Source: an uncultured Bacillales bacterium (lineage in GTDB: Bacteria > Bacillota_I > Bacilli_A > RFN20 > CAG-826). Taken from it: a DNA stretch of 64,000 bases. The stretch covers positions 11,484 to 75,483 of the forward strand of contig CAMOEI010000006.1 in NCBI GenBank assembly GCA_946612115.1, written 5' to 3'. Positions 4,207 to 48,029 of this stretch are shown here, in pieces. Positions within the stretch are counted from its first letter, which is position 1. Each line of letters opens with the position of its first letter. The notes below the pieces were generated by a model. That model saw only the letters and a list, made by a program, of their open reading frames with translations. It was not told where the DNA came from and did not search any database. Made by a program: the position numbers and the translations under genes.

Positions 4207-4355
4207 GGTTGGACAATCACAAAATATTTACTTCGCAAATCAAAAAGTATAGTTTCTTGTGTTTTTTATTGAATATAGTCATTTTAAAAATTATGGTTAA
4301 AGTAATGAACATATTCTAAATATGTAAAACAATCTATTTAAAGGTGGTATTTGCA

Positions 4356-11248: not shown

Positions 11249-11272
11249 TATAAATATATAGAGATAGAAATT

Positions 11273-12715: not shown

Positions 12716-12716
12716 T

Positions 12717-18142: not shown

Positions 18143-18153
18143 AGGAGGCATTT

Positions 18154-20169
18154 ATGAGAAAAAGATTTCTTAGTGTTATTACTATTATCTCCATGTTAGG
18201 ACTTAGCTCTTGTGCCGGTGCATCAGGCCCAAAGTATTACTCAGTCCGATGGGTGGACCACGATGGAACTCTATTAGAGTTAGATGAAAAGGTCAAAGAA
18301 GGAGAAATGCCTTCTTATGATAGCGCCACCCCAACACGAGCGGCGGATGCGCAATATTCCTACGTATTTGAAGGTTGGAGTCCAGAAGTTGCAGCAGTTA
18401 GTAAAGATGTTACTTACACTGCGACTTACACTCAAACCACACGAATGTATACGGTGAGATGGGTCAACTATAATGACGTAGAACTCGAAGTTAAAACTAA
18501 TGTTCTTTATGGAACAGTTCCAGTTTATCCAGGAACAACAGATCCTAGTAAACCATCAACAACCGAAAAATCCTATAACTTTACAGGTTGGGAACCAACC
18601 CCTGAGGCAATCACAGGCGATGTGACCTATAAAGCTCAATTTGAAGAGGTTGCAAGAAAATACACCATCACGTGGGTTGATGAAAACGAAGAACCTCTTG
18701 AAACAAGCCAAGTTGCCTATGGCACTGTCCCAGAATATCCAGGTGATTATGATCCAAGCAAAGCTTCAACAGAAGACTACAATTACTACTTTGCTGGTTG
18801 GAATCCAGTTCCAGTGGCGGTTACTGGTGACGCAACTTACACCGCAACCTATACTGCTAAGAGAAAATACACCATCACTTGGAATGATGATGAAGGTCAT
18901 CTTTTAGAAACATCTAAGGCTGAAGAAGGAACAATTCCAACTTATCCTGGTACACAAGATCCTTCTAAAGAATCAACTGCACAATATACCTACACATTTA
19001 CTGGCTGGAATCCAACACCTGTCGCAGTTACTGGTGACGCAATCTATGCTGCAACATTCAGCAGCGAAGTCAACAAATACACCATTAGATGGGTTGATGA
19101 CGAGGGCGCAGAACTCGAAGTTGATGAGAATGTCGAATACGGAACGACTCCTTCATTTGAAGGCTCAACTGATAAATCAGATAGTGAACTTTATCACTAC
19201 ACATTTACTGGCTGGGATCCAGCAGTGGAAGATGTAACTGGAAATCAAACTTACACCGCTACATATGACAAGACCAGTCTTTATGAAAATTCTTCTGCAG
19301 CGTTATTAACTGATAACGGAAGAATCAATGAAACTTACACAGCAGCAAAGACTTATCAAAAGAATACATCAACTAAAGTTGACTACTTCTCTCAAGTCGG
19401 ATGGACAGTTTCTTATGGCGCAAAGAGTGATGCTGATGCAACCAAATTCCAAATTGGTAACTGCATACATCCTGATTATGGATATCACGGTGATTTAACT
19501 CCTGAACAGTCCACAATGGCAGCAGAAACTGATCAAACAACAGATACTTATAAGATTGCTGCAGCAGTCGGATCTGCTGAGACAACTCACTTAGTGTCCG
19601 CTATTTGGTCTGATACATATTTTGAAGGACTAAATGATATTCACTTCTATTGGAGAGATTGTGAAACCCCTGGTTATGTCAGAATGGTTTATCAAATCAA
19701 AGGTGAAGATGAATGGAAAGTCTTAGAACGTGACAATGGCAATAACGCTGCCGATGCTTTAAGTGGATATGCTCCTGATGGCAAGAACACCGCTAGTGGA
19801 ACCAGTGGAGATTTTAACCGCTATTCTTATGAAAACTATTTAACAAATGGTTCAAGTTTAAAGAATAGAGCGGTTAGAATTGGGTTTGTCTACACTGTTT
19901 ACAACAGTCAAAGTAAGACTTACTACATGAACCTTGGTGGTATCGTCATTAATGCTGCTCAAGAAGCAATTAACTTCGCTAATAGAATTGGCGCTAATTA
20001 TGCTGATTACAGTGCTAACTGGCAATACAAGAACACCTTAAAAATTATCTATAACTCAATCGCTCCATTTGAGGATGAATTAAAAAATACTGAAATCACA
20101 GCGTTTGATGTTGAAGATACTAATTACTACGATTTCTTAACCACAGTGAAAGCTGCTTGGAATATTTAA
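18154..20169 (+). CDS. lipoprotein with six Listeria-Bacteroides (Flg_new) repeats and a C-terminal domain
   Basis: Lipobox LSSC. Six ~75-aa repeats of the form YT(I/V)RWVD..G..LE....YGT.P.YPG..DPSK...YTF.GW.P.P.AVTGD.TY.A.Y. Confidence 0.75.
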   Translation: MRKRFLSVITIISMLGLSSCAGASGPKYYSVRWVDHDGTLLELDEKVKEGEMPSYDSATPTRAADAQYSYVFEGWSPEVAAVSKDVTYTATYTQTTRMYTVRWVNYNDVELEVKTNVLYGTVPVYPGTTDPSKPSTTEKSYNFTGWEPTPEAITGDVTYKAQFEEVARKYTITWVDENEEPLETSQVAYGTVPEYPGDYDPSKASTEDYNYYFAGWNPVPVAVTGDATYTATYTAKRKYTITWNDDEGHLLETSKAEEGTIPTYPGTQDPSKESTAQYTYTFTGWNPTPVAVTGDAIYAATFSSEVNKYTIRWVDDEGAELEVDENVEYGTTPSFEGSTDKSDSELYHYTFTGWDPAVEDVTGNQTYTATYDKTSLYENSSAALLTDNGRINETYTAAKTYQKNTSTKVDYFSQVGWTVSYGAKSDADATKFQIGNCIHPDYGYHGDLTPEQSTMAAETDQTTDTYKIAAAVGSAETTHLVSAIWSDTYFEGLNDIHFYWRDCETPGYVRMVYQIKGEDEWKVLERDNGNNAADALSGYAPDGKNTASGTSGDFNRYSYENYLTNGSSLKNRAVRIGFVYTVYNSQSKTYYMNLGGIVINAAQEAINFANRIGANYADYSANWQYKNTLKIIYNSIAPFEDELKNTEITAFDVEDTNYYDFLTTVKAAWNI

Positions 20170-20236: not shown

Positions 20237-22660
20237 TTAATCAATTACTTCAATTGTTATCTTCTTAGGATAATCAGAGACATCAAATTTGTTGCTCTCT
20301 AATTTATTTCCGTTAGCTAGAATTGTTCTCTTTCCTTTACCTTTATTTCGGTAGTGAAGATCAACTCTCTTTCCTTTGATTGTTAGAGAGATGTTTGCTT
20401 CCTTAGAAGGCATTTCTCTAACTGGATTGATCTCTACTTCATCACCAATTTTTGGCTTAATACCAAACATATCAAAGATAATTGCTTTTAATAATGTATT
20501 ACTGCTACCGGTATACCAGTCGTTCATACTTTCTCCATCGATACCAAGTTCTTTGTTATAACCATAGGAGTTAGGCATTACAAACGGAGAGACAGAAATC
20601 TTATTGTGAGTAAGAGGAATTAATTTTGAAATTTGTTCAAACGCTTTCTTTCCTTCATTCATCAATAAGAGGGAACGGACCGCAAACATCGCTCCATGGA
20701 TATATGTTGCTGCGTTTTCTGCAGTTCCTTTAGGAAGATTAACAATTCTTCCAACTTTATAAGCGTCTTCTCGGTCAAAATATTCATTAAAGGTCTTGTA
20801 GCCATATTTGCTATCTAAAGCTTCATACGCTTCAAGAATAGATTCTTTTAATTCTGGATGTTTCTTATACATCTTCGAGATGACATAGAAAGCGTGAGAT
20901 GTTACAGAGTAACGGTCTTTGTTATCAACATCACATTTACTTCCGACATAGAATGATTTATCTTCACCCCAGCCGTGAACGATACGATTATCTTTAACAG
21001 CGTATTTCATAAATCCTCTAAGGACCTGTTCTGCTGTTTCTAGATAAATAGTTTCTTCACGCATAAAGTCTGCGATATCATCCATCTCTAAAAGATTGAG
21101 ATATAGGTGCTCGGTGGCCATAACGGATACACCGTTACCGTATTCTTTTCCTTTATTTGATGCGCCTAGACCATCGACTGCGTCATTCCAGTCTCCATAT
21201 AGAGTTCTAAGACAATGTGTATCTTCATCAATGTTAGAAATGAGATAGTGGATGATTCGGCATAAATGTTCATACACTGTTTCTTGTTTATCTATTAAAG
21301 TTGCTTGTTTCTTTGATTTGAGTTCCACATAGCCACATTTCTCGTTAAGAATTGAGTAGTCATTAGTGAAAGCGAGGTATTTCCAAATAGTGGAGATGAT
21401 CCATTGTCCTTGATCAATGAATTCTCTGCTATCAACAAGTGCGTCTTTTCCAGTGCTTGGAGCAGCGTATTGTCTCATCGCTCTTCCTTCGAGTGTGATG
21501 TAGTTAAGAGACTCTAGGATTTTCTTTTTGGCGTTTTCCTTGTTCCAAAGTAAAGACACCTCTAACATTTGATAGAGATCTCTAATACCTAAAAGCATTA
21601 AAGAAGAGTTCTTTGCATTAGCGCAATAATCGACTTGGTCGACTACTGACGCAATGAATTTATTAAAGAGTTCATTATTGATTTCTGAATCAGTGAATTT
21701 TCCGAAAGAAATAGCGATTTTTTCGTTTTTATTTGGTTTTTGAATGGAATTTACATCATTTTTGCTATTTTCTCCAAACCTTAATTCAAGCTCATAACTA
21801 ACTTTATAGGACTCGTTTGGTTGAAGAGTTATTTTGTTCAAATCACCATAAGCTGCCATATTAGTGAAAGTGGAAACTTGCTTGCTATTTTCAAAAGATC
21901 CTTCTCTTAAAAATCTTGATTGGGAAATGGAGTAATTCTTATTTCCAACATAATCTTTTCTAGATGAGACTGCGGAGTAATCTTTTGCTTTATTTTGAAC
22001 TTTTACATCTAGATAACTATGGAGATGTTCCTCTCTAGATAAGTCTTCAACAGAGTGGAATTCTGCTCCATTAGCTTTTAATGAGCAAGTTCTAAACCAT
22101 TTTGTTTCTTCTGTCTCAAACGCTCCGTGAGTAAGGAGTGGATTGAAATAAGAAGATAATAATACTTCTTGAAGTTTCTTTGATTTGTTGATGACTTCAA
22201 GTTCAAAAGAAGCAGCACGTTTACTATCGACCTTTCCTTTTAAACAGAAGATTACTTTCTTGTATTCTCTAATGTATTTGAATTCTTCTTTATTAAAGAT
22301 CACATAGACATCGAATTCTCTACCAAGTTCCGTATCAGCGGATCCGGACAAAGAGAAGACATCAAATCTATCTTTGTTTTTAATTCCTCCGAAGAAAGAG
22401 ACATATGGTTCTTTTCCTTCAAGTTCAGGAGGAAAGATGAAGAAGTTAGATTCATTTAATGTGATGTTTCCTGAAGAATAGGCCCATAAGGTAAACCCAT
22501 CAAGAGAATAAGGATATCGAGCGTCTCCATCAGGATTTGGCAATGCCAAAATGTTGCCGCCTTTTAAAAAGTAGCAACCACTTGGTAAAGAAGCATCTTG
22601 TGGATGCTCCTTAATTATTCTTTTAGATTCTTTTAGTAATTTGATTGCTTCGTTTTCCAT
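20237..22660 (-). CDS. cytoplasmic (alpha/alpha)6-type glycoside phosphorylase/hydrolase, GH94-like (candidate chitobiose/cellobiose-type phosphorylase)
   Basis: 807 aa, no signal peptide. GDWNDAVDGLG motif resembling the GH94 catalytic region. Located in a sugar-uptake locus. Confidence 0.5.
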   Translation of the reverse strand: MENEAIKLLKESKRIIKEHPQDASLPSGCYFLKGGNILALPNPDGDARYPYSLDGFTLWAYSSGNITLNESNFFIFPPELEGKEPYVSFFGGIKNKDRFDVFSLSGSADTELGREFDVYVIFNKEEFKYIREYKKVIFCLKGKVDSKRAASFELEVINKSKKLQEVLLSSYFNPLLTHGAFETEETKWFRTCSLKANGAEFHSVEDLSREEHLHSYLDVKVQNKAKDYSAVSSRKDYVGNKNYSISQSRFLREGSFENSKQVSTFTNMAAYGDLNKITLQPNESYKVSYELELRFGENSKNDVNSIQKPNKNEKIAISFGKFTDSEINNELFNKFIASVVDQVDYCANAKNSSLMLLGIRDLYQMLEVSLLWNKENAKKKILESLNYITLEGRAMRQYAAPSTGKDALVDSREFIDQGQWIISTIWKYLAFTNDYSILNEKCGYVELKSKKQATLIDKQETVYEHLCRIIHYLISNIDEDTHCLRTLYGDWNDAVDGLGASNKGKEYGNGVSVMATEHLYLNLLEMDDIADFMREETIYLETAEQVLRGFMKYAVKDNRIVHGWGEDKSFYVGSKCDVDNKDRYSVTSHAFYVISKMYKKHPELKESILEAYEALDSKYGYKTFNEYFDREDAYKVGRIVNLPKGTAENAATYIHGAMFAVRSLLLMNEGKKAFEQISKLIPLTHNKISVSPFVMPNSYGYNKELGIDGESMNDWYTGSSNTLLKAIIFDMFGIKPKIGDEVEINPVREMPSKEANISLTIKGKRVDLHYRNKGKGKRTILANGNKLESNKFDVSDYPKKITIEVID

Positions 22661-26644: not shown

Positions 26645-27534
26645 TGGAAGATTTATCAAGAGCCTATCGCGGTGAGAAATACATCACCAAAAAGAAAGAT
26701 GTCGGATATCACACTACTAAGTGGGTCGTTTTTCTTATCTTTGTTCTTTATGGCGCGACCTTATTATTCCCATTCTTATGGATGCTTCTCAACTCCTTTA
26801 AAAATGGTGTTGAATTCATCGGAAATATGTTTGGATTGCCACAAGAATTCGACGGTCTCAATTTTATTGAGGTCTTAGAATACGAGATGCCTTCAGGACA
26901 AACTATTGGTTCAATGGTTTTGATGTCGTTCTTAGTAACAATCTTAGGTACCACAATTAACATCTTCTTCTCGGCGTGTACCGCTTATATCTTAGCGAAA
27001 TACCGCTTCCCTGGAAGAAATGTGATTTACGCTATTGCCATCTTTACAATGATTGTTCCTATCGTTGGAACTCTTCCAAGCCAAATCAAGATGATGGACT
27101 TATTCTTCCCAGATAAATCGATTCTTGGAGTCTTATTCCTTTATTCCGGATGTTTCGGATTTAACTTCATCCTTCTTTATAGTGCGTTCTCTAGTGTCTC
27201 TAATTCTTATATTGAAGCTGCATCTATTGACGGAGCAGGAAGATTTAAGACCTTCTTTGGTGTTATTCTTCCACAAGTTAAAGGTTCAATCATTGCTTGT
27301 TCAGTTCTTCAAGCGATTGCCTTATGGAACGATTACACAACCCCAATGTTATTCCTTCCTGATGATCAACAAACCTTAGCGGTTGGATTGATGTCACTTC
27401 AAACGGAGTTTGATGGAGATTATCCAAAACTCTTTGCCTCAATGCTTATCGCCGTTTTACCAATTCTAATTATTTACATGATCTTCCAAAAGAAAATCAT
27501 CGAATCCACTAATGCGGGAGGTCTTAAAGGATAA
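26644..27534 (+). CDS. sugar ABC transporter permease (MalG/UgpE type)
   Basis: Six TM helices and an EAA motif (IEAASIDGAGRF). Start overlaps the upstream stop (TAATG). Confidence 0.9.
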   Translation: MEDLSRAYRGEKYITKKKDVGYHTTKWVVFLIFVLYGATLLFPFLWMLLNSFKNGVEFIGNMFGLPQEFDGLNFIEVLEYEMPSGQTIGSMVLMSFLVTILGTTINIFFSACTAYILAKYRFPGRNVIYAIAIFTMIVPIVGTLPSQIKMMDLFFPDKSILGVLFLYSGCFGFNFILLYSAFSSVSNSYIEAASIDGAGRFKTFFGVILPQVKGSIIACSVLQAIALWNDYTTPMLFLPDDQQTLAVGLMSLQTEFDGDYPKLFASMLIAVLPILIIYMIFQKKIIESTNAGGLKG

Positions 27535-30500
27535 TGAAAATCAAGACCCTTTTCGTTACTTCTTTACTAACCCTTCCTCTTTTAACTGCGTGTGTTCAGA
27601 AAGGACATATTTCATTTGCCAAGGACAGCTATCAAATACATAGCGGTGACAAAGTCAAAGTTAAACAAAACTATTCTAATGTTTCTTATTCTATTGAAGG
27701 AAATAAACCTGCTAGTTTAAGAGTCAATAGTAAAAGTGGAGTTATCACCTTTGGTGATGATGTAAATAATTATTCACAGTTTATTTATAAAGCAGCGTTT
27801 GAGAAATGGTCTTGTTCCACTGTTATCACACTTCTCAGAAGTGACCCAGTACCAGAATTAGAATTTGTTTCCCCAACAAATTATATTTGTGATGGAGATT
27901 TGGTCTTAGCTAAATCAAGCAATGATAAACTCTCAATCACTTATTCAATCACTTCAAATAATAGTGGTGTTTCAATCGATTCCTCTAGCGGAAGAGTGAA
28001 TTACACTGCAGCGGCAACAGATGGAGAAGAATTCACAGTTAAGATTTCCTCTAATGGGGCAAATAAAACTCATACCTTTATCGTGGCGAAATCTAACTTA
28101 GCAAAAGTTTATGATGTCAACCAAGTCATTGAAAAGGATGGAAGTCCCGCTGCGTTTGAACTTGATTTCAGCGAAGTCTCTCCAAGCTTTAGTCACACAG
28201 TTATGGGAATCTCTAAAGGCAATAGCATTTTAGATAACTCATATTATACATATGATTCAACTAGACAAGTTTTAGTTATCAACTCTTCTATTAATGAAAT
28301 CCTTATTCCTGGAGAAAATGAATTATCGATCATTACTCCTAGAAATAACATTAAAATTAATGTTATCAGTGCGACTAAATTAATTAGAACCCCAGAAGAT
28401 TTAGCAAGTATCAATTCCTCTCGTAGTGCGTTACAGGGTTATTACATCTTGGCTAATAACATCGACTTAACTGATTACTTAAGTAAAGGCCATGCTGGAT
28501 ATAATGACGGCAAAGGATGGGCGCCTATTGGTGTTTATCACGATGTCACCGATGGTACAGCGATGTATGACATTTTCAATGGAACATTCGATGGTAATGG
28601 TTACACGATCAGTGGACTTTATTTCAATAGATCAACTTCAGAAGAAACTAGCTTCAACTGCGGTTTATTTGGATACGCTGGTAACTTATCAATCATTAAA
28701 AACTTAGGTGTTGTTGGAGCAGATGAAACTTGCTTTGGCAAGAGTTACATTGGTGGCTTCATTGGTGTTAATGAAGGCATCATCTCTAACTGCTGGGCAG
28801 ATGTCGATATTTCAAATAACTACGAAGGTTTAGACCACAAGATGTGTGGTGGATTTGTTGGAAGAAACATTGGCACGATTGAAAATTGTTATTCATTAGG
28901 TAAAGTCGATGGAGAACTTAACTTTGGAGCGTTCATCGGAAAAAATGACAAAGGTGTTATCAAGAACTGTTTTGCAAATAAAGAATCCAGTGACCAATAT
29001 TCTGGTGATTATATCGATCCTGAAATTGAAGCTCATTGTTTCTTTAAAACATTAGACCTTATGAAGGCTCACGATTACTCTGATGATTTCTCCAGCGAGT
29101 ACTGGGATTTAAGCAAGTCTCTTCCAGAATTAAAGACACACTTGCATTCCTTCTATGCTGATCGAATTGTCTTTGATCCAATTGAAGCGGAATACACCAA
29201 AGGTGACACGATTCATTTCAATTACCATATCATTCCTTATGAATTAGAGTCTCAATACATCGACCAAGTTGAAGTGACAGTCAATGATTCACATTCAACT
29301 GCCTATCAATTTAGTGTTGTGACCACTGATGATTCTTTAAACGATATCGAAATCACTCTCTCTTTAGAGATTTATGGAATATTAATCCAAACCAAAGCCT
29401 CAGTCCATCTCTTTGATAAACCAACTGAGATCGTCTTCAGTGAAGATTTACCTCAATATGTTGAACCAGGAAAGAGATATCGTCTTAACTCTTCAGTCAA
29501 TCCAGACACCGCGTCTCAACAAGTTGTTTGGTCGCTTAAATCAACCAAAGTTCTTGGTGTTTCAATTGAAGATAATATTTTGACAGTGGGTGAGCTCGTT
29601 CAAAAATATCACAATGAAACATTTACAATTCAAGCCAAGACTCTTTCCAATAACATCACTTTTGAAAAGGTCTTAACTCTAAATCAACCTAAGTATCTCG
29701 ATAATGGTTACACCCTCTTTAAAGATGACACTAATGACTTAGTCATTGAGATGCCAAACGAAGAGAATTTAACTAACGCTCAAGTCTATCGCTATAACAA
29801 AGCGACCTCCTTCTCCGTTAGCGAACATACCATTACAATTCCTCGAAGTGTCTTAATCGAAATCCCAGATACGACAATTACGTTTAATGTTAGACTCGTA
29901 AATGGAACATATTATCGAGTCTATGGTACATATATCTCTCACGATAGGATTACTTCTGTTGAGGGAGAAGTTATTCACTTATCTTCTAAAGAAAAATTCT
30001 ATCAATATTTCAATCAAAAAGACTTCGACGAAAATAGATTTGCTAATTATGACAAAGTCTTTGTCTTAGATAACGACATTAACTTTGAAAATGAAAAACT
30101 TTACGGTATTGGCTTTACTGATGATGAAAAACACATTGAACATCAATTCACAGGAAAAATCTATGGAATGGGTCACAAGATTAAAAACGCGAGAGTGGAA
30201 GAAAGTGAAAGATACTTTGCTTTAACTCCAGAAGAAAGGGAAGAAGATCCAACTCATTATAAATACCGTTCAAGTAAATTCGTCGTTGGTTTCTTTGGCA
30301 AGTTCAATGGACAAATCTATGATGTAGTTTTTGAAAACATCAAAGTTATCGGAAGAAATTACTGTGGTGTATTCGCTGGTACTTGTGGACCTAATTCTAG
30401 AATTGAAAATGTCATCTTCAATGGTTGTTCTGTTCAAAACGCTTACAAAGTTGATTACACGGTTATCGAAGGTACATCAGTTATTAGAACGGGTGATGTT

Positions 30501-30569
30501 ACCGCGAGAAATGAAGGCGTTATCGTTGCCACAACATTTAATGGCGAAATTTATAACTTGGAGGGTTGA
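27534..30569 (+). CDS. large surface lipoprotein with GLUG-motif repeats
   Basis: Lipobox LTAC. GLUG-like repeats (GGFIGVNEGIISNCWA..., GGFVGRNIGTIENCYS..., GAFIGKNDKGVIKNCFA). Confidence 0.65.
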   Translation: MKIKTLFVTSLLTLPLLTACVQKGHISFAKDSYQIHSGDKVKVKQNYSNVSYSIEGNKPASLRVNSKSGVITFGDDVNNYSQFIYKAAFEKWSCSTVITLLRSDPVPELEFVSPTNYICDGDLVLAKSSNDKLSITYSITSNNSGVSIDSSSGRVNYTAAATDGEEFTVKISSNGANKTHTFIVAKSNLAKVYDVNQVIEKDGSPAAFELDFSEVSPSFSHTVMGISKGNSILDNSYYTYDSTRQVLVINSSINEILIPGENELSIITPRNNIKINVISATKLIRTPEDLASINSSRSALQGYYILANNIDLTDYLSKGHAGYNDGKGWAPIGVYHDVTDGTAMYDIFNGTFDGNGYTISGLYFNRSTSEETSFNCGLFGYAGNLSIIKNLGVVGADETCFGKSYIGGFIGVNEGIISNCWADVDISNNYEGLDHKMCGGFVGRNIGTIENCYSLGKVDGELNFGAFIGKNDKGVIKNCFANKESSDQYSGDYIDPEIEAHCFFKTLDLMKAHDYSDDFSSEYWDLSKSLPELKTHLHSFYADRIVFDPIEAEYTKGDTIHFNYHIIPYELESQYIDQVEVTVNDSHSTAYQFSVVTTDDSLNDIEITLSLEIYGILIQTKASVHLFDKPTEIVFSEDLPQYVEPGKRYRLNSSVNPDTASQQVVWSLKSTKVLGVSIEDNILTVGELVQKYHNETFTIQAKTLSNNITFEKVLTLNQPKYLDNGYTLFKDDTNDLVIEMPNEENLTNAQVYRYNKATSFSVSEHTITIPRSVLIEIPDTTITFNVRLVNGTYYRVYGTYISHDRITSVEGEVIHLSSKEKFYQYFNQKDFDENRFANYDKVFVLDNDINFENEKLYGIGFTDDEKHIEHQFTGKIYGMGHKIKNARVEESERYFALTPEEREEDPTHYKYRSSKFVVGFFGKFNGQIYDVVFENIKVIGRNYCGVFAGTCGPNSRIENVIFNGCSVQNAYKVDYTVIEGTSVIRTGDVTARNEGVIVATTFNGEIYNLEG

Positions 30570-39547: not shown

Positions 39548-42500
39548 ATGAAAAAATCAGTTATTAAAAATATATCGTTACCTATTGCTGGTTTATTAGG
39601 TCTTGGCGTTATAACATTTGGCGCTGTTTCATATAGTGAATATAAAAAAGATAACATTAATGTCGCTTTAGCAGATGAAGGAACTGAATTACCTTCCTCA
39701 GGAGGTGCGTTATCTTCGGGCACTTATTATATAAATACAAATACAACTTTAACTAATTACATAACAGTCGCTAGTGGTAAAAATATTGTTATTAATCTTA
39801 ATGGTTGTTCATTAAGTGCCAACCCTAATTCTACTCAACCTATTGTATATGTTAATGGTGGAACATTAACGGTTAATGGTGATAATGGCAAATTAACTGG
39901 GGGAACGGGTTACTCTAGCAACTTTAAAAGAGGTGGCGCATTTCATCTTGCTTCTGGCAATGTAACAGTTAATAGTTGTAATTTTGAAAATAACACAGCT
40001 GAATATGGCGGAGCCATATATCTAGGTGGAGGCACTATTACTCTTAATGATTGTAAACTATATAACAATACAGCAACTAGTCAATGGGGAGATTATGGCG
40101 CTATCTTTGCTGAAGGCGCAAATTCTAACGCAAGTGTAATTGTTAATGGTGGTGAAATATATTCTAATGATTCAGGAATAATGCTAGCGGGTTGGAAAGA
40201 TAATACATCAAGCGCTCAGCTAAATGGAGTCAATATCCACAACAACCCTAAATATGGTGTTGATGTTAGAGGCGACAATGCTGGTCGCGCTGCTGTAAGT
40301 GTATCTGGCAATACTATTATAGAAAGCAATACATTAGGAAATTTACGTCTACAGGGCAATAGCGCTAGCACCCAACCTAAGTTTAGTGTTGCATCTGAGT
40401 TAGGTGATAATGCATCAATTGGTATCTCTATGGCTCATAAAGGTGTTTTCACCAAAAGCACAGACACATCATTAAATGATGCTAGCAAATTTTTTAGTGA
40501 TGATAGTGGTTATGCAGTCGGCAAGAACGATGATGGGCAATTGTTTTTAGACTCTCCTAAAACAGTTACCTATAGCACCGAACATGGTACTGCACCTGAT
40601 CCTGTAAAAGTTGCCACTGGCTCTACCATTCCTAGCGAACCAATTTCCCCAACTGCGGAAGGATATGATTTCGTTGGTTGGTATAAAGAGAGTACTTTTG
40701 ACAATGCCTGGGATTTTGCTACTGATGTAGTGACATCAGATATAACTTTATATGCAAAATGGCTCACACTACCAACCGCATCTATTACGAAAGGCACAGA
40801 TGTTACATATTATGATAGTTTTGGTGAGGCGTTATCTCACTGGGAAGTTGACTCAATTTTAACCTTGCATAAAGATGTTACAACATCAACCACTATTACA
40901 ATCAATAATAATGTTATTCTTGACCTTAATGGTCATGGTATTAGAATGACTAACACCAACACTAGATTGTTCTATATCAATAGTGGTAAAACATTAACTG
41001 TTAATGATAGTAACTCAACCCACGCTCACGCAGTAACTCTTTCAGGCTGGCGTGGTACAGCTGTCACTGATGGAACTGGAACAAGTTCTGTGAATAATGG
41101 TAGTGGTACAGCTTATATCACTGGCGGATATATCACTGGTGGGTATTCAACTAGTAGTTCTGTAAAAGAAGGTTTAGCTTTCTATATCAATGGTGGCACC
41201 CTCGTTTTAAATGGCGGAAATATTATTGGTAACTATGTTAAGGTTACAAACAATTCTGGTGCCGGTGTTTATATGACAGGCGGAGCTCATCTAAGCATGT
41301 ATGACGGAGCAGCGCTTATATATAACTATGCTCAAAATTCGGCCGCTGCAATTGAAGCAGTTAACTCTTATGTCGAAATTTATGGCGGCACTATCGCACA
41401 TAATAGAAATGACTGGGGAGATGGAGTTGCAATTTCTGCCGCTGGAGCCACTTCAATCAAATTATATGGTGGTGTCATTGAGGACAATAGCACTAAAAAT
41501 AATGGAGCTATTAGCCTTGCCCGTTATAGCTTGTCGGCTGATCAATACTTCGGAATTAAAGGATCACCGACTGTCACTAATAATTATTCTTGGAATAATA
41601 ACAATAATCCTGCAAACATCAATCTCTATACAAAAGCTCATATTGAAGGAGCATTAACCAATACAGAAAAGATTGGCATTAATCTCCATAGTAAAGGCGC
41701 TGGCAATATATGGAATAACGGTACTGGCTGTTTTACTATCGGTTGGTCGACTTATATGGAGGGGAAAGATCCTAGAGATTATTTCTTTAGTGATAAATCA
41801 GATTACATTATTGGATTAAATGCAGAAGGAGAAGTAGTTTTAGACTCTCCTAAAACAGTTACCTATATCACTGAACATGGTACCGCTCCTGATTCAGCTA
41901 CAGTTGCGTCTGGTTCTATTATTCTAGATGAACCAACTGAACCAACTGAAGGAGACTATGTTTTCGGTGGTTGGTATAAAGAGAGTACCTTTGAAAATGC
42001 CTGGGATTTCACCACTGATGTAGTGACATCAGATATAACTTTATATGCTAAATGGTATGATCCCGCGACTCTCAATGTTATTAAATTAATTAATGATATT
42101 GGTGAAATTACATATGATGGCGGAGTCGATGACTCTCAAAACGATATCATTGCAGCAAAAACCGCTTACGATGCTTTAACTCCAGGACAACAAGCAGATG
42201 TCGGTGGAACTAATAAAGATATTTTGGATCACGATATTGTGACTTATAACCATGTTGATAATGCTGGAGATTTAATTAAAGCTATTCCTGAGGCTAGTGA
42301 TTCTCAAGAATATTATGATGCAGTTGTTGCTGCTGAAGCAGCATATAAAGCTTTAACCGATGAAGAAAAAGCTATTTTAAATGCTGATCCTAACTTTGAT
42401 TATTTAAAGGCATTAAATGATAATGTCACCGCTAAAGAAGTTATCGAACTCATCAAAGATATTGGAGAAGTAACTTACAAAGGTGGTCAAGATGATTCTA

Positions 42501-45325
42501 AAGATGATATTAATAATGCCTTAAATGCGTATAACAATTTAACTGACGATCAAAAGGCAATCGTTGATAACGTTAATAAAGATGATTTAGATGACGCAAA
42601 AGAAACATATGATGATGTTGATGATGCAATTAAACTAATTGAATCTATCGGTGATGTCTCTCATGGTGGAGCATCTGATTCTCAAGAAGCGATTGAAGCC
42701 GCTAGAGAAGCATATGATTCTTTATCTGATGAACAAAAAGCTTTAGTGGATTCATATAATGATTCTGGTAAGACCTTACAAGATGATGAAGCTGTCTATG
42801 AAGCGATGGAAGCAATTGACGCTATTGGTGATGTCAGTTATGACTCAGATAGCGAAGAAACTGTCGCTCACGCTAGAGAAGTCTATGATTCATTAACCGA
42901 TGATCAAAAAGCTCAACTTGGTGAAGCTTATGTCAAGATTCTCACCGATGCTGAAAGCAAATATTCTTCTTTAGGACAAAAAGGTGACATCTTATTTATC
43001 ATTTTGATTATTGTTGCTTCACTTGCTCTTATCGGTGGCTTAGTCTTCTTATTCTTCCTCATTAAAAAGAAAAAGAATAAAGATGACGATGACCAAAATA
43101 ATGGAAACCTTAAAAAAGGACAACCAGCAAAAGCTTATTCCTTTGGTGGTTTACTCCCATTAGTGGTTTTAGTGAGTCACTATCTAGATACCAAATACAT
43201 CATCCTTTATGTTGTTGCAGGACTTGCGGTGCTCGTTTGGATTTCTTGCCTTGTTCTTTTCTTAACTAAAAAGAAGGCTAAAGCCGCTATACAAGTTAAA
43301 GATGATGTAAAAGTGGAGGAGAATGCATTACCACAAAATGAAGATGAAGAAGAAGTGGTGACAGTCACTGATGAAAAAGGAAACATCTTCCAAATCAGAT
43401 TCATTAAATCATTCACTGCAAAACTTATTCAATCTCCTAAAGAAACTAAAAAGTATTATGAAGAACTTAAAAATGAAGTTCTCTCTTATAAAAAGACTAA
43501 TACGAGAGTTAGTTGGCATTATGATGCGATTAACTCTGGTAGAAATTATGTTCTTAAATTTGCAGTTAGAGGAAAAACACTTTGTGTTTATTTCCCTCTT
43601 AATGCAGATGATTACGTTGATTCTAAATATAAAGTCGAAAAGTCCGAAAGCAAGAGATACGAAGATGTTCCTTGCTTATATCGAATCAAAAACGATCGAA
43701 GACTTGGCTATGCAAAAGAACTTATTGCGGTGGTCGCTAATAAGCTTGGCCTAGAAAAAGGCGAAGAACAACATGAAGTTTACTCTAATCTTCCTTATGA
43801 GCCGAATAAACCACTTATTGCTAGAGGTTTAATCAAAGAACTTAAGATTCAAGTCAATAAACCAATAGAGCAAGTTCTTGAAACTAAAGTCAATAGCGAG
43901 GGCGATGAGATTGTTGTCAGTAAGGACGAAAAAGGAAATATCTTTGAGATTAGATTTGTGAAGTCGTTCACTGCGAAGCTCATCCAGTCACCAGAAGAAA
44001 CGAAGAAATATTACGAAGAGCTTAAGAATTATGTTCTCTCATATAAGAAAACAACTTCTAGAGTTTCTTGGCATTATGATTCAATTAATTCTGGTAGAAA
44101 CCAAGTCTTGAAGTTTGCGGTTAGAGGTAAAACACTTTGTGTTTATTACCCACTTAATGCGGATAGTTACTCCGAAAGTAAATATAAAGTTGAAAAAGTG
44201 GAGTCTAAGAAGTTCGAAGATGTTCCTTGCCTTTATAGGATTAAGAATGATCGAAGACTTGGCTACGCAAAAGAATTGATCGATGTTGTTTGTGAATCTC
44301 TCGGCTTAGTTAGAGGTGAAGAGCAACATGAAAGTTACGCCAATCTTCCATATGAACCAAATAGACCATTAATCGCTAGGGGTTTAATCAAAGAACTAAA
44401 AGTTCAGGTTAATAGACCAAGCGAACCAGAAGTGTTAGAAAGTAAGACTAACATAGAAGGCGATGAAATTGTGGTCACTAAAGATGCATCTGGCAACATC
44501 TTTGAAATCAGATACATCAAATCGTTTACTGCTAAACTATCTCAATCCAGTGATGAAGTTAAAGACTACTACACCGAGCTTAAAAATTACGCGCTTTCAT
44601 ATAAAAAAGCTAATTCTAGAGTAAGCTGGCACTATGACTCAGTTAATGTTGGTAGGAACCAAGTTCTTAAATTCTCTATTAGAGGAAAGACTTTATGTCT
44701 CTATTATGCATTAGACGCTGAGAGATATGCGGACAGCAAATACAAGGTAGAGAAAGTCGAATCTAAGAAGTTTGAAGATGTCCCTTGCTTATATCGAATC
44801 AAAAACGATCGAAGAAGAGACTACGCAAAAGAACTCATCGATGTGGTGATGGAGAGAGTTGGAGCGGTTAAAGGTGAGGAGCCAAACGAAGATTATCGCA
44901 TTCCATATGAAAAGACTAATGTTCTCTTAGGAAAAGGTCTCATCAAAGAAGTGAAAACTAAAGTTAATAATCCTGAACCAAAGTCTGTAGAAGTTCATGA
45001 ATCAATCACTGCGATAGAAGCAGACATTAAAATGTCTGATGAAAAAGCTGAATCTTTGATTGAAGAGAGTAATGAAACTTCTAGTAGAGGTGGTAAAAAA
45101 GAGATTATTAATATCGACACACTCTCAGAGCATTATCAAGATGGTGATGAAGTCACCTTAGATTCATTGATAAAAAAGAAACTCGTGTCTAATAAAGCCG
45201 GATATATCAAGGTTTTAGCAAGAGGCACATTAGATAAAAAACTAACAGTGGTTTTAAATGATTTCTCACTCCAAGCTGTTAAGATGATCGTTCTTGTCGG
45301 CGGAAAAGTGAAGAAAGTCAGATAA
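39548..45325 (+). CDS. giant surface protein: beta-helix, Listeria-Bacteroides repeats, ~45-aa repeats, 3 TM segments, cytoplasmic tail with three ~187-aa repeats and a uL15-like C-terminal domain
   Basis: Signal/anchor sequence. Parallel beta-helix-like Gly/Asn-rich repeats. Two Flg_new repeats (GWYKESTF.NAWDF.TDVVTSDITLYAKW). Six DIGEVTY.GG.DDS... repeats. Hydrophobic segments at aa ~1150-1250. Three repeats beginning DEKGNIF(E/Q)IRF(I/V)KSFTAKL. The last ~75 aa align with the C-terminal half of bacterial RplO (INID..GDEVT...AGYIKVLARGTLDKKLTV...FS..A......GG). Confidence 0.8.
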   Translation: MKKSVIKNISLPIAGLLGLGVITFGAVSYSEYKKDNINVALADEGTELPSSGGALSSGTYYINTNTTLTNYITVASGKNIVINLNGCSLSANPNSTQPIVYVNGGTLTVNGDNGKLTGGTGYSSNFKRGGAFHLASGNVTVNSCNFENNTAEYGGAIYLGGGTITLNDCKLYNNTATSQWGDYGAIFAEGANSNASVIVNGGEIYSNDSGIMLAGWKDNTSSAQLNGVNIHNNPKYGVDVRGDNAGRAAVSVSGNTIIESNTLGNLRLQGNSASTQPKFSVASELGDNASIGISMAHKGVFTKSTDTSLNDASKFFSDDSGYAVGKNDDGQLFLDSPKTVTYSTEHGTAPDPVKVATGSTIPSEPISPTAEGYDFVGWYKESTFDNAWDFATDVVTSDITLYAKWLTLPTASITKGTDVTYYDSFGEALSHWEVDSILTLHKDVTTSTTITINNNVILDLNGHGIRMTNTNTRLFYINSGKTLTVNDSNSTHAHAVTLSGWRGTAVTDGTGTSSVNNGSGTAYITGGYITGGYSTSSSVKEGLAFYINGGTLVLNGGNIIGNYVKVTNNSGAGVYMTGGAHLSMYDGAALIYNYAQNSAAAIEAVNSYVEIYGGTIAHNRNDWGDGVAISAAGATSIKLYGGVIEDNSTKNNGAISLARYSLSADQYFGIKGSPTVTNNYSWNNNNNPANINLYTKAHIEGALTNTEKIGINLHSKGAGNIWNNGTGCFTIGWSTYMEGKDPRDYFFSDKSDYIIGLNAEGEVVLDSPKTVTYITEHGTAPDSATVASGSIILDEPTEPTEGDYVFGGWYKESTFENAWDFTTDVVTSDITLYAKWYDPATLNVIKLINDIGEITYDGGVDDSQNDIIAAKTAYDALTPGQQADVGGTNKDILDHDIVTYNHVDNAGDLIKAIPEASDSQEYYDAVVAAEAAYKALTDEEKAILNADPNFDYLKALNDNVTAKEVIELIKDIGEVTYKGGQDDSKDDINNALNAYNNLTDDQKAIVDNVNKDDLDDAKETYDDVDDAIKLIESIGDVSHGGASDSQEAIEAAREAYDSLSDEQKALVDSYNDSGKTLQDDEAVYEAMEAIDAIGDVSYDSDSEETVAHAREVYDSLTDDQKAQLGEAYVKILTDAESKYSSLGQKGDILFIILIIVASLALIGGLVFLFFLIKKKKNKDDDDQNNGNLKKGQPAKAYSFGGLLPLVVLVSHYLDTKYIILYVVAGLAVLVWISCLVLFLTKKKAKAAIQVKDDVKVEENALPQNEDEEEVVTVTDEKGNIFQIRFIKSFTAKLIQSPKETKKYYEELKNEVLSYKKTNTRVSWHYDAINSGRNYVLKFAVRGKTLCVYFPLNADDYVDSKYKVEKSESKRYEDVPCLYRIKNDRRLGYAKELIAVVANKLGLEKGEEQHEVYSNLPYEPNKPLIARGLIKELKIQVNKPIEQVLETKVNSEGDEIVVSKDEKGNIFEIRFVKSFTAKLIQSPEETKKYYEELKNYVLSYKKTTSRVSWHYDSINSGRNQVLKFAVRGKTLCVYYPLNADSYSESKYKVEKVESKKFEDVPCLYRIKNDRRLGYAKELIDVVCESLGLVRGEEQHESYANLPYEPNRPLIARGLIKELKVQVNRPSEPEVLESKTNIEGDEIVVTKDASGNIFEIRYIKSFTAKLSQSSDEVKDYYTELKNYALSYKKANSRVSWHYDSVNVGRNQVLKFSIRGKTLCLYYALDAERYADSKYKVEKVESKKFEDVPCLYRIKNDRRRDYAKELIDVVMERVGAVKGEEPNEDYRIPYEKTNVLLGKGLIKEVKTKVNNPEPKSVEVHESITAIEADIKMSDEKAESLIEESNETSSRGGKKEIINIDTLSEHYQDGDEVTLDSLIKKKLVSNKAGYIKVLARGTLDKKLTVVLNDFSLQAVKMIVLVGGKVKKVR

Positions 45326-45345: not shown

Positions 45346-46374
45346 ATGAAAAGTAAAAACAAAAAAGTATCACTATTTGAAAAGATCTTTGGCTATGTCT
45401 TTTTAGGCCTACTCGTAGTCTATGTGGTCTTATTCGCTTTTGGAAAGTGGATTTTCCCTGCAAATAGCAGTTTCTATCGCAGCTTAAATCTATTCTCAGG
45501 AGCAGGAGATCCAAATGTCTTTGTAAGAATTTTAAGTTATTCATTCTTTATCTTTGGCATTAGCTTTGTCCTACGAATGTTATTAGGCTTTTGCTTACCA
45601 TTATTAAAGAAAACCAGAGGTTTATTAACAATTCTTATCTCTGTTATCAAATACGCTGCTGTATTAGTCTGGCTATTCTTTGTTTTATCTAGCTTTGGAG
45701 TTAATACCACAGTTATCTTAGCAGGTATTGGAATCGTTTCCTTAATTGTTGGCTTAGCCATTCAACCATTACTCTCAGATATTATTGCTGGTTTATTCAT
45801 CGTCTTTGAAGATGTCTTCAACGTTGGCGATGTTATCGTCGCTGATGGATTTAGAGGCGAAGTTATTGAAATCGGTATGAGACACACTCAACTCAAAGAC
45901 GCTGGCGGAAATATCAAAGTTATTAATAACTCTGATATCCGTAGCATGGTTAACTTAACTGACCAATTATCTTTAGTTTCCATCGATATGTCGATTGAAT
46001 ATGGTGAATCACTTGAAAGAGTGGAAGCTATCATCGCTCAAAACATTGATGAAATTAAGAAATCCATTCCAAAAATTGTTGAAGGACCTTTCTATAAAGG
46101 CGTTTCTTCTTTAGGAGATTCTTCTGTTAACTTAAGATTCTTTGCAACGTGTGAAGAAAACGATCGCTTCCAAGTTGAAAGAGACTTAAATAGAGCCTTT
46201 AAACTCTTATTTGATAAGAACAATATCAATATTCCATTCCCACAAGTGGTGGTCAATCAACCAGTTTCTTTTGAGAATGCAACTTCTAAAGATAAGAAAA
46301 TCGCTGAAGCGTTTGTTAACGAACAAAAAGAAGTTTCTGGCAATTTAGAAGAAGTAAATACAGATATTAAATAA
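45346..46374 (+). CDS. MscS-family mechanosensitive channel
   Basis: Three N-terminal TM helices plus the conserved MscS beta-domain (GDVIVADGFRGEVIEIGMRHTQLKDAGGNIKVINNSDI). Confidence 0.85.
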   Translation: MKSKNKKVSLFEKIFGYVFLGLLVVYVVLFAFGKWIFPANSSFYRSLNLFSGAGDPNVFVRILSYSFFIFGISFVLRMLLGFCLPLLKKTRGLLTILISVIKYAAVLVWLFFVLSSFGVNTTVILAGIGIVSLIVGLAIQPLLSDIIAGLFIVFEDVFNVGDVIVADGFRGEVIEIGMRHTQLKDAGGNIKVINNSDIRSMVNLTDQLSLVSIDMSIEYGESLERVEAIIAQNIDEIKKSIPKIVEGPFYKGVSSLGDSSVNLRFFATCEENDRFQVERDLNRAFKLLFDKNNINIPFPQVVVNQPVSFENATSKDKKIAEAFVNEQKEVSGNLEEVNTDIK

Positions 46375-46376
46375 TC

Positions 46377-48029
46377 ATGAATCAAGAAAAAAACGTTTTT
46401 AAAATTGATAATGAAGGCGGAATCTATAAGGCTGAAGAGATAAACAAGATTCAGCAAGGTAGAGAATATTTTCATCATGACCAAGAACGTTTCTCTTCAT
46501 CCGAAAAATTTGATAATTCTAAAGAATTAAATGATTTCTCTTCTGATATTGAGAAAAAAGAGGAGAAAGAGATTAAACATCAAAACACTAACGCCTCTAG
46601 TGGCGCTAGCGGAGCAAGTAGTGCTGGAAGTGCTGCTGGAGCGGTTTCTGGAGTTGGAGCAACTGTTGCTCTTCCTGGAATTGTTGTCTCTTTAGTTGGC
46701 GCGGTCGCGGTTATTGGAGTGACTACTGGAATTATTCCTACCCCTCCAACCAATCACGTCTCCGTCTTTATGTCTAGAAGCACAGAGTTAGGATTTGAAA
46801 TTGATCGCGATCCGAATAAGAGCTATGTGATGTATCTTTACAATGAAGAAAACTCTTATTTTGAGGCTGTTGATTTTATCGACCAAATCGTCTTTACTGA
46901 TTTACTTCCTAACACTGTTTATAACTTGACTGTTTACGATACAAGCGTTGATCCAAATGCTCTAGTGTATTCTGGTAATTATTTAACTGCTTCACACGAT
47001 GATTGTTCTTCTAGTGTCACTGCTAGTGAGGTAGAAGATGGTTATTTAACATTAAATGTTGAATATGAAGGTGAAAACATCGAATTCGTTACAATCTACG
47101 TTATCGGTGATGACAATGAAGTTATCTATACATATGAAGGCGCTCCTGTGAGTGAATTAACCGTCAATGTTGAGGGTTATCAAAATGTCACCTGCCAGAT
47201 TTCCGTTAACGGACAAGTAACTGAATTTGAACACCTTGTTTCCCCTGGTGAAATCGTTCATGTTCAAAGTGTTAATTTAAGTGAAGCTTCTTTAGAATTA
47301 GGAGTTGGCGAAACAAAAACTGTTACCGCAACCGTGTTACCGGAAAATGCGACGAATAAGGAACTTATTTGGTCTAGTAGTAATAATTCCGTTGCCACAG
47401 TGGAAAACGGGCTTATTACCGCCTTAAAAGAAGGAAAAACCACTATTACAGTTAAATCAAAAGATGGTTATAAATCATCTTCGTTAGAATTAACTGTTAA
47501 TAAGAAACCTTCTATCATCCATGTTGAATCTATTTCATTAGATGAAACAGAACTTAATATGCTAACTGGTGATAGAGCCACTCTTTCTGCGACTGTCCTA
47601 CCAGATAACGCAAAAAATAAATCTGTTACCTGGAGTAGTAGTGATGAAAGTGTTGCCACTGTTAATAATAAAGGAAGAGTAACCGCAGTTGGAGCAGGAA
47701 CAGCGACAATTACTGCTACTAGTGTAGATGGTGGGTTTACCGCCATATGTACTATTAATGTTACTCAAAAGAATGTTCCAGTCGTTGGCGTGAGCTTAAA
47801 CGTTGATGAATTAGAAATTAATGTTGGTGAAACCAGTTCATTAGTGGCGTCAGTCTTACCAGTTAACGCTACTAATAAAGGAGTGATTTGGTCTATCGCT
47901 GATGAGGAAGTCGCTAGTGTTGACGAAAACGGAAAAGTAACTGCGCTTAAAGTCGGTGAAACTGTGATCACTGTTACAACTCTTGATGGCGGTTATAAAG
48001 ACTACTGTATAATCAAAGTAACTGCTTAA
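46377..48029 (+). CDS. membrane protein with four extracellular Big_2 (bacterial Ig-like) domains
   Basis: Cytoplasmic N-terminus, one Gly/Ala-rich TM segment, and four repeats with the Big_2 signature (A.VLP.NATNK...WSSS...VATV...G.VTA...G.ATITA). Confidence 0.7.
   Translation: MNQEKNVFKIDNEGGIYKAEEINKIQQGREYFHHDQERFSSSEKFDNSKELNDFSSDIEKKEEKEIKHQNTNASSGASGASSAGSAAGAVSGVGATVALPGIVVSLVGAVAVIGVTTGIIPTPPTNHVSVFMSRSTELGFEIDRDPNKSYVMYLYNEENSYFEAVDFIDQIVFTDLLPNTVYNLTVYDTSVDPNALVYSGNYLTASHDDCSSSVTASEVEDGYLTLNVEYEGENIEFVTIYVIGDDNEVIYTYEGAPVSELTVNVEGYQNVTCQISVNGQVTEFEHLVSPGEIVHVQSVNLSEASLELGVGETKTVTATVLPENATNKELIWSSSNNSVATVENGLITALKEGKTTITVKSKDGYKSSSLELTVNKKPSIIHVESISLDETELNMLTGDRATLSATVLPDNAKNKSVTWSSSDESVATVNNKGRVTAVGAGTATITATSVDGGFTAICTINVTQKNVPVVGVSLNVDELEINVGETSSLVASVLPVNATNKGVIWSIADEEVASVDENGKVTALKVGETVITVTTLDGGYKDYCIIKVTA

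Follow-up and report, generated by a model that had tools for sequence, protein, structure and literature searches.

A membrane-anchored module of tandem repeats and a uL15-like domain, fused to a giant surface protein in an uncultured Bacillales bacterium

A 64,000-nucleotide (nt) stretch of contig CAMOEI010000006.1 (assembly GCA_946612115.1), from an uncultured Bacillales bacterium and referred to here as the window, contains an open reading frame (ORF) of 1925 amino acids (aa) in which a large surface protein runs on past its membrane anchor into a C-terminal tail, made up of a membrane hairpin, three tandem repeats (R1, R2 and R3; collectively R) and a domain resembling ribosomal protein uL15 (L; Table 1). 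We find that R and L together form an ancient, self-contained and widespread membrane-anchored module, and that the in-frame fusion of this module to the surface protein, not the acquisition of a uL15 sequence, is the recent event. The folds are known, and surface proteins anchored by a transmembrane (TM) segment are commonplace. Not described before are the module itself, the membrane-bound paralogue of uL15 and the recurrent coupling to surface proteins; a literature search on uL15 fusions, PF00828 and 'uL15-like' turned up neither the family nor a uL15 domain outside the ribosome. No record was returned by exact-sequence look-ups for the window protein and for relative P0241.

The N-terminal 1171 aa are similar to TM-anchored Firmicute surface proteins with Flg_new or Big domains in being of secreted type, acidic and repeat-rich, and in ending in a TM segment with a K-rich stop-transfer sequence. 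Residues 8–29 would serve as a Sec signal. The ectodomain carries PF09479 Flg_new (Listeria-Bacteroides) repeats in two stretches (Pfam, E 1.5e-33), with conserved cores near aa 377 and aa 808 of the full-length protein, as well as DIGEVTY-type helical repeats at aa 850–1140. An LPXTG anchor is absent from the 1925-aa protein, in which LP.[TSA]G-like strings occur only at aa 11 and 48, and anchoring is by TM segments without a sortase-type C-terminal motif. Ordinary TM-anchored surface proteins stop a few residues past the TM segment, and the other surface proteins of the window end in a plain TM and a short RRKR-type tail, whereas this protein runs ~750 aa further. The original prediction counted three hydrophobic segments here; TM1 (aa 1148–1171) and TM3 (aa 1216–1240, with KKKAK directly after it) are indeed strong, but the middle one, TM2 (aa 1196–1211, GGLLPLVVLVSHYL), is only weakly hydrophobic. 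TM2 and TM3 make up the hairpin, which corresponds to the N-terminus of stand-alone family members, and the spacer that follows it has a counterpart with a net acidic composition in 98% of the 188 family members compared.

Table 1. Features of the fused gene and of the genes downstream of it, in window positions.
Feature	Position	Strand	Basis or remark
Whole ORF, 1925 aa: surface protein joined in frame to hairpin-R3-L module (three R repeats)	39548..45325	+	
N-terminal signal peptide or anchor, aa 8–29	39569..39634	+	hydropathy peak 2.04
Acidic ectodomain, aa 30–1146, isoelectric point (pI) 4.3	39635..42985	+	
TM1, aa 1148–1171, then KKKKNK; surface protein's original C-terminal stop-transfer anchor	42989..43060	+	hydropathy, L001 alignment
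Fusion junction, aa 1172–1195, KKKKNKDDDDQNNGNLKKGQPAKA	43061..43132	+	comparison with L001
Module's membrane hairpin: weak TM2, DTK turn, TM3, then KKKAK	43133..43267	+	hydropathy
Acidic spacer from membrane to R1, aa 1241–1272, pI 4.65	43268..43363	+	
Repeat R1, aa 1273–1458: basic YjbR/YdhG-like core (pI 9.5) and acidic helix-strand extension	43364..43921	+	
Repeat R2, aa 1459–1644	43922..44479	+	81% identity to R1
Repeat R3, aa 1645–1831, L-proximal subtype	44480..45040	+	
Conserved acidic helical linker ahead of L, ITAIEADIKMSDEKAESLIEE...	45041..45097	+	AlphaFold2 model, alignment A1
L domain, aa 1851–1925, pI 9.6, homologue of uL15 C-terminal globular domain	45098..45322	+	
Downstream genes: MscS-like (45346–46374), Big_2 surface protein (46377–48029)	45346..48029	+	Pfam

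That the last ~75 aa are uL15-like, as had been proposed, is agreed on by profile searches, phmmer, Foldseek and structure prediction. Residues 1851–1925 match PF00828 in Pfam (E 1.5e-14; 54.6 bits, cut-off 21.5) and positions 73/74–144 of the 144 in TIGR01071 (rplO_bact), where scores of 40.3 and 46.2 bits do not reach the equivalog cut-off of 77.95. With phmmer, L aligns with residues 75–144 of Listeria uL15 (E 2.8e-9), Foldseek pairs it with Firmicute uL15 (E 9e-6, 36–41% identity), and the uL15-like fold is found in an AlphaFold2 (AF2) model of R3 plus L (mean predicted local distance difference test score, pLDDT, 90.8). A PROSITE-type uL15 signature pattern matches aa 1888–1918, and matched none of 2000 shuffles of the protein. 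Every one of the 39 sequences in alignment A1, the window segment and 38 homologues, carries PF00828. The acidic linker that invariably stands ahead of L, with helices at model residues 180–186 and 189–194 (block pLDDT 80–88), is conserved in A1 and also occurs in TM-helix-L proteins without R.

L is homologous to residues ~74–144 of uL15 (RplO), shares its fold, has its best matches in Firmicute uL15 and retains the conserved positions K-[IV]-L-x-x-G ... S-x-x-A ... G-G. It differs in lacking the entire Gly/Arg/Lys-rich N-terminal extension (model positions 1–72), in scoring below the equivalog level, in forming the C-terminus of a membrane protein and in being more basic than the C-domain of Listeria uL15 (counted from the phmmer alignment). 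It is also encoded outside a ribosomal operon; rplO normally lies beside secY in the spc ribosomal operon, whereas this gene's neighbours encode TetR, flavodoxin/Fer4, MscS-like and Big_2 proteins, and neither a canonical rplO nor a second copy of L is present within the window. Judged from its sequence, L is a paralogue of the C-terminal globular domain of uL15 and not a ribosomal protein itself. We note that the NCBI pipeline names P0001, P0003, P0005, P0062, P0259 and others 'uL15 family ribosomal protein', although these are membrane proteins of 180–950 aa, and that some family members carry the Joint Genome Institute (JGI) label 'ribosomal protein L15'. Both labels describe a domain and misname the protein, and they could skew counts of marker genes or ribosomal proteins in metagenome-assembled genomes (MAGs).

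The three tandem repeats noticed earlier are confirmed by protein alignment, by which they were delimited, with a unit of 186 aa rather than 187 (period 186–187 aa). Tandem Repeats Finder reports nothing on the ORF because the 558-nt repeat exceeds the longest period that it considers, 500 nt. Amino-acid identities are 81% between R1 and R2, 68% between R2 and R3 and 60% between R1 and R3, and nucleotide identities are 66–74% pairwise. R2 looks like a lineage-specific extra copy, since relative P0010 (see below) has only two repeats. Each repeat has a basic core (pI 9.2–9.5) followed by a conserved acidic helix-strand extension. Structure comparison places a YjbR/YdhG 'double-wing' or frataxin-like alpha/beta sandwich fold in R, and Foldseek with R also returns B. 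subtilis YdhG. The fold is common to MmcQ/YjbR (PF04237), YdhG/DUF1801 and DUF5655, but the sequence family is not detectably shared with them, and no Pfam or NCBIfam model covers the R repeats; the only Pfam signals seen are DUF3788 on the window tail (E 0.035) and a summed DUF5655 match on the soluble relative P0151. R departs from the MmcQ/YjbR–YdhG/DUF1801 proteins in three further ways: the additional conserved helix-strand extension (PYE..L...GLIKE), the tandem arrangement (arrays of 1–7 copies across the family) and, in the branch of the window protein, membrane anchoring. With R1 as query, phmmer retrieves 2,857 cluster representatives (clusters at 50% identity) at E<=1e-3, all of them from uncultured Bacilli, Clostridia and Acholeplasmatales of gut and rumen; 1,956 remain at E<=1e-10. 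R is a large domain family that lacks a Pfam model.

In a syntenic relative, L001, the single gene of the window is represented by two. The upstream gene codes for a surface protein of 1058 aa with a TM segment and EKKKK at its C-terminal end; window aa 2–1150 align with this product, to which the ectodomain is 35–50% identical, and TM1 aligns with its TM+EKKKK end. Behind a spacer with a ribosome-binding site lies the downstream gene, which encodes a 549-aa hairpin-R-R-L protein (P0010) whose aa 2–549 align with window aa 1195–1925. The junction at aa 1172–1195 stands in place of the L001 stop codon, intergenic spacer and start codon. By this comparison, a whole TM-anchored surface-protein gene and a whole downstream hairpin-R-L gene were joined in the window lineage. 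A fusion or capture of a gene 3′ end had been suggested for this locus; the gene fusion stands, and the recent capture of an rplO 3′ end does not, the module being old and widespread. The MscS-like and Big_2 genes follow in the same order in the window, in L001 and in L086 (below); the pairing is not conserved across the module family, and a functional link is not implied.

The same fused layout is found in 24 non-redundant hairpin-type homologues. In 22 aligned fused sequences (the window and 21 homologues) the hairpin motif S..P...SHY.D..LY is conserved, and the old start is often K-A-M-S, for which the window has K-A-Y-S. There is no in-frame ATG near the window junction; an internal start for separate expression of the tail was considered for the window gene and rejected, as there is also no convincing Shine-Dalgarno-plus-GTG combination at the junction. 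In other fused ORFs that keep K-A-M-S (alignment A3, column of window aa 1194–1197), an internal start might still yield the free module. The fusion is also seen in L086, from an independent metagenome, where a 1925-aa allele is 97% identical and gap-free with the same junction and synteny, and the 90% cluster of this allele has three members, all of 1925 aa. The ratio of nonsynonymous to synonymous substitution rates (dN/dS) against the allele is 0.16 for the whole ORF, 0.18 for the ectodomain and 0.116 for the tail, which shows no indels relative to the 97.4%-identical allele. The ORF is contiguous in two samples, and none of the outcomes that would have undone the original prediction, an assembly error, a missing uL15 fold or a tail lying outside the cell, is borne out.

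The original prediction regarded the combination as an oddity, but it recurs: dozens of cluster representatives, the longest of 4721 aa, combine a giant surface protein with TM, R and L. Many R-containing proteins are giant (1,200–4,700 aa) with the R/L tail at the extreme C-terminus. In gut Firmicutes the module is fused to unrelated giant ectodomains, encoded downstream with a stop/start overlap, or free-standing, and the 57 loci that can be classified divide into 25 fused, 6 stop/start-coupled and 26 free-standing. At coupled loci a large gene lies upstream, its stop codon overlapping the start of the module gene as ATGA or TAATG. A Shine-Dalgarno sequence is found 6–9 nt upstream of that start, and the upstream partners end in a TM segment and a K/R tail. 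Examples are L030, L051, L056, L059, L060, L064 and L079, with the TM-helix-L version of the module in L087 and L089. This repeated fusion and coupling is a Rosetta-stone signal, pointing to a link between cell-surface proteins and a cytoplasmic partner, probably nucleic acid or the ribosome.

At eight coupled loci (L030, L056, L059, L060, L064, L079, L087 and L089) the upstream anchor TM has a conserved intramembrane G-E (or C-E/A-E) followed by Y/F..YRK, and the module's own TM carries GG(Y/F)...D. The polar motifs in both partner TMs hint at specific TM-TM pairing.

A search with the tail returned 767 matching proteins, many of them auto-named 'uL15 family ribosomal protein', and one L peptide pattern occurs at 203 loci in GTDB species genomes. 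The taxonomic labels rest on 80 of the 203 loci; almost all of these 80 are in MAGs or uncultured genomes, many from gut and rumen, and they include Erysipelotrichaceae/Bacilli, Clostridia (Christensenella-like, Borkfalkiaceae, Coproplasma, Gallimonas), Acholeplasmatales and Mollicutes. In many uncultured Firmicutes of gut and rumen, membrane proteins regularly end in a paralogue of the globular half of uL15. The usual layout of the hairpin/TM-R(n)-L family opens with a membrane anchor and a K/R cluster, continues through an acidic spacer to one to three R domains, and closes with an acidic helix ahead of a C-terminal L; the window protein has all of these elements in this order. L is present in 126 of 240 proteins, 119 with a TM segment and seven without a detectable one, and those of the seven that were inspected have truncated N-termini. 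L is missing from all 44 soluble R-repeat proteins. In some small proteins the TM and helix lead to L with no R between them (P0259, P0268), and a search with the linker and L alone, yielding 52 candidates, exposed proteins of this type. L is confined to membrane-anchored proteins, and since TM-helix-L proteins lack R and soluble R proteins lack L, the two are separable modules.

Clustering of ORFs at the 80 loci revealed no conserved neighbour family beyond antisense ORFs and generic ABC ATPases. In L063, L068, L069 and L075 (Christensenella-like and Borkfalkiaceae MAGs) a stand-alone module gene lies 127–144 nt downstream of a ~697-aa gene that is polynucleotide phosphorylase (PNPase)-like, by its end sequence only. 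PNPase is upstream in 4–5 closely related Christensenella-like genomes and is the sole RNA-metabolism neighbour seen; the adjacency is probably plain lineage synteny.

The tail is most likely cytoplasmic, as first proposed, on the basis of the positive-inside rule and of single-TM fused forms. The 15 aa after the last TM have a net charge of +2.5 (positive in 84% of 189 proteins), compared with -0.2 before it. Some fused proteins (e.g. P0230 and P0237) combine a signal peptide with a single TM, an arrangement that can only leave the tail in the cytoplasm. Hairpin-type fusions carry a third, weaker hydrophobic segment (S..P...SHY.D), whose conservation would restore an odd number of crossings in these forms. 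AF2 predicts three helices for the TM region of the window protein (predicted template modelling score, pTM, 0.43), with TM2 being 12 residues long at pLDDT 55–67.

What the tail does can be approached from fold ancestry and charge. It is possible, and is our tentative preference, that the tail is a membrane-tethered binder of ribosomes, RNA or DNA, physically associated with surface-protein anchors; the ligand is a predicted one. This suggestion is made because the R fold has a predicted nucleic-acid-binding relative and because R and L are both basic and sit on acidic spacers. Ribosomal RNA (rRNA) is favoured as the partner since it is the native ligand of the uL15 fold, the ancestor of L binding 23S rRNA on the surface of the 50S subunit. 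The basic R cores and basic L, held off the membrane by the acidic spacer, would contact a large polyanionic partner, most likely rRNA or ribosomal particles and otherwise messenger RNA or DNA. On the cytoplasmic side of the membrane, the anchors of surface proteins would thereby be connected with ribosomes or with the nucleoid, and stop/start coupling would deliver the partner TM to the same translocon right after the upstream stop-transfer anchor.

A more specific version, which we consider distinctly unlikely, is that the module is a Firmicute membrane ribosome receptor. Docking on 50S or pre-50S particles would fall to a surrogate uL15 globular domain, assisted by RNA-binding domains of YjbR type; the particles might, for instance, lack uL15, or the contact might be at the neighbouring site that is filled by eL18 in archaea. 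Ribosomes would in this way be retained or silenced on the inside of the membrane, the receptor being delivered beside giant TM-anchored surface proteins through the same translocon by fusion or by stop/start-coupled translation. Should the partner prove to be the ribosome, the module would represent a membrane-ribosome tether of a kind new to bacteria. YqjD, ElaB and YgaM, small membrane-anchored hibernation proteins of Proteobacteria whose cytoplasmic parts tether 50S subunits to the membrane (bioRxiv 10.1101/2024.08.16.608256), may be functional analogues but are not homologous, and the window protein has no DUF883-type Pfam match. They are C-tail anchored, whereas the anchor of the module is N-terminal or internal and its cytoplasmic array C-terminal, and 50S binding is theirs while that of the module is hypothetical. 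The eukaryotic ribosome receptor of the endoplasmic reticulum, p180/RRBP1, has an N-terminal membrane anchor followed by cytoplasmic tandem basic repeats; the likeness is one of layout only, as the p180 repeats are decapeptides rather than folded domains, and sequence and fold are unrelated. We know of no other extra-ribosomal use of the uL15/eL18 fold.

Several observations weigh against a nucleic-acid or ribosome binder. The uL15 site in the mature 50S subunit is already filled by uL15, and L is without the N-terminal extension that threads into rRNA. L is absent from 70 of 189 membrane-anchored members (37%) and is thus not essential to the family, and the 26 free-standing cases among the 57 classifiable loci make the tie to surface proteins not obligatory. 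No conserved neighbour connects the module gene to translation at the 80 loci. Neither the window repeats nor those of the 38 A1 homologues match a Pfam family at E<0.05, and specifically not PF04237 (MmcQ/YjbR), PF08818 or PF18899. Frataxin/CyaY and YdhG use the same fold to bind iron or protein. The three-TM topology of the window protein is a prediction in which the weak TM2 has low model confidence, and ligand binding by the tail is likewise predicted, as is DNA binding by YjbR (PMC7641849).

Some of these points lead to a different account, somewhat unlikely in our estimation, in which the tail binds no nucleic acid and is a cytoplasmic protein-protein or mechanical module, acting as a stopper or scaffold that stabilises, clusters or signals from surface proteins and re-using the uL15 and YjbR folds for interaction. 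Time and again the module is joined, by fusion or by translational coupling, to giant ectodomains that are unrelated to each other and have a plain TM anchor and not LPXTG, frataxin/YdhG-type folds serve functions that do not involve nucleic acid, and there are conserved polar residues in the partner TMs (GE in upstream anchors, GG(Y/F)...D in module anchors). However, a scaffold for surface proteins is at odds with nearly half of the classifiable loci being free-standing, with neither an ectodomain nor a coupled surface-protein gene, and basic cores beside acidic spacers together with the retained uL15 signature positions better suit a polyanionic ligand.

It is unlikely that the ligand is DNA, with the double-wing R holding the chromosome, plasmids or incoming DNA at the membrane and L as an accessory. 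R resembles YjbR and the C-terminal domain of T4 MotA, and DNA binding by the YjbR fold has been predicted from that likeness (PMC7641849). Some soluble R-repeat proteins also carry the McrC N-terminal domain DUF2357 or match the PADLOC defence-candidate profile PDC-S18 over their R repeats, but the DUF2357 matches are partial and barely above threshold, the DUF2357-R genes sit with EAL-domain and S26-peptidase-like genes with no McrB seen, and the window tail has no PDC-S18 match. We regard the soluble proteins as weak support for DNA binding, and the sole domain with a known ligand is L, whose ligand is rRNA.

The soluble R-repeat proteins deserve description on their own. In two relatives (L084:6001-8694 and L085:6001-8892) proteins of two to seven R repeats with the partial McrC-N (DUF2357) match are encoded in a conserved cluster that also holds genes for EAL-domain proteins, for two proteins resembling S26/S24 signal peptidases and several genes without a Pfam match. 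A reading of these as McrBC-type restriction systems was considered and set aside as not firm, as no McrB-like GTPase is seen beside the R-repeat genes of L084 and L085; the cluster may be a separate system that uses the same repeat. The PDC-S18 matches are in P0149, P0157, P0174 and P0232, at positions ~190–327 (E 1e-11 to 1e-25). PADLOC gave no significant defence-family match on the window tail, and a Csx21 hit there (E 0.0057, no stretch passing) is noise.

An extracellular tail, comprising a wall-spanning linker and then binding domains, is very improbable. The E/P/A-rich spacers do resemble wall-spanning regions of Gram-positive surface proteins, and the two strong TM segments of the window protein would alone leave the tail outside, but this conflicts with the K/R clusters, which in 84% of members follow the last TM towards the tail, with the single-TM fused forms, with the odd TM count that the conserved third segment gives in hairpin forms, and with a tail that contains seven Cys and a ribosomal-protein-derived fold. 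That the uL15 end is a recent capture of the rplO 3′ half, or the long ORF an assembly or frameshift artefact, is scarcely credible even though the gene truly is a fusion of two ancestrally separate genes, given that L is only 36–41% identical to Firmicute uL15, that PF00828 is in every A1 member and L loci span several classes, that an independent sample has the identical junction in a gap-free ORF within a three-member cluster all of 1925 aa, that dN/dS is 0.12–0.18, and that 24 fused homologues are laid out alike.

Elsewhere in the window, an 829-aa ORF (4344–6833, +) has no Pfam match, a signal-peptide-like N-terminus and, in contrast to the short RRKR tails of its neighbours, a ~50-aa cytoplasmic tail after its C-terminal TM (KWIRREDKAIRVFKLFGIKKDDKFLVVSFPVKFEYKLDNEIFNTKEEALKE). 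The original prediction mentioned other examples of 3′-end capture at this locus, and this ORF may be one of them. Surface and glycan genes lie within regions 8543–20169, 20237–22660 (-) and 27534–30569, and code for a GH84-type beta-N-acetylglucosaminidase with F5/8 type C domains, a GH94-family protein, a BspA-type leucine-rich-repeat lipoprotein and a GLUG-motif protein. This gene content fits a host-glycan-foraging gut or rumen Firmicute.

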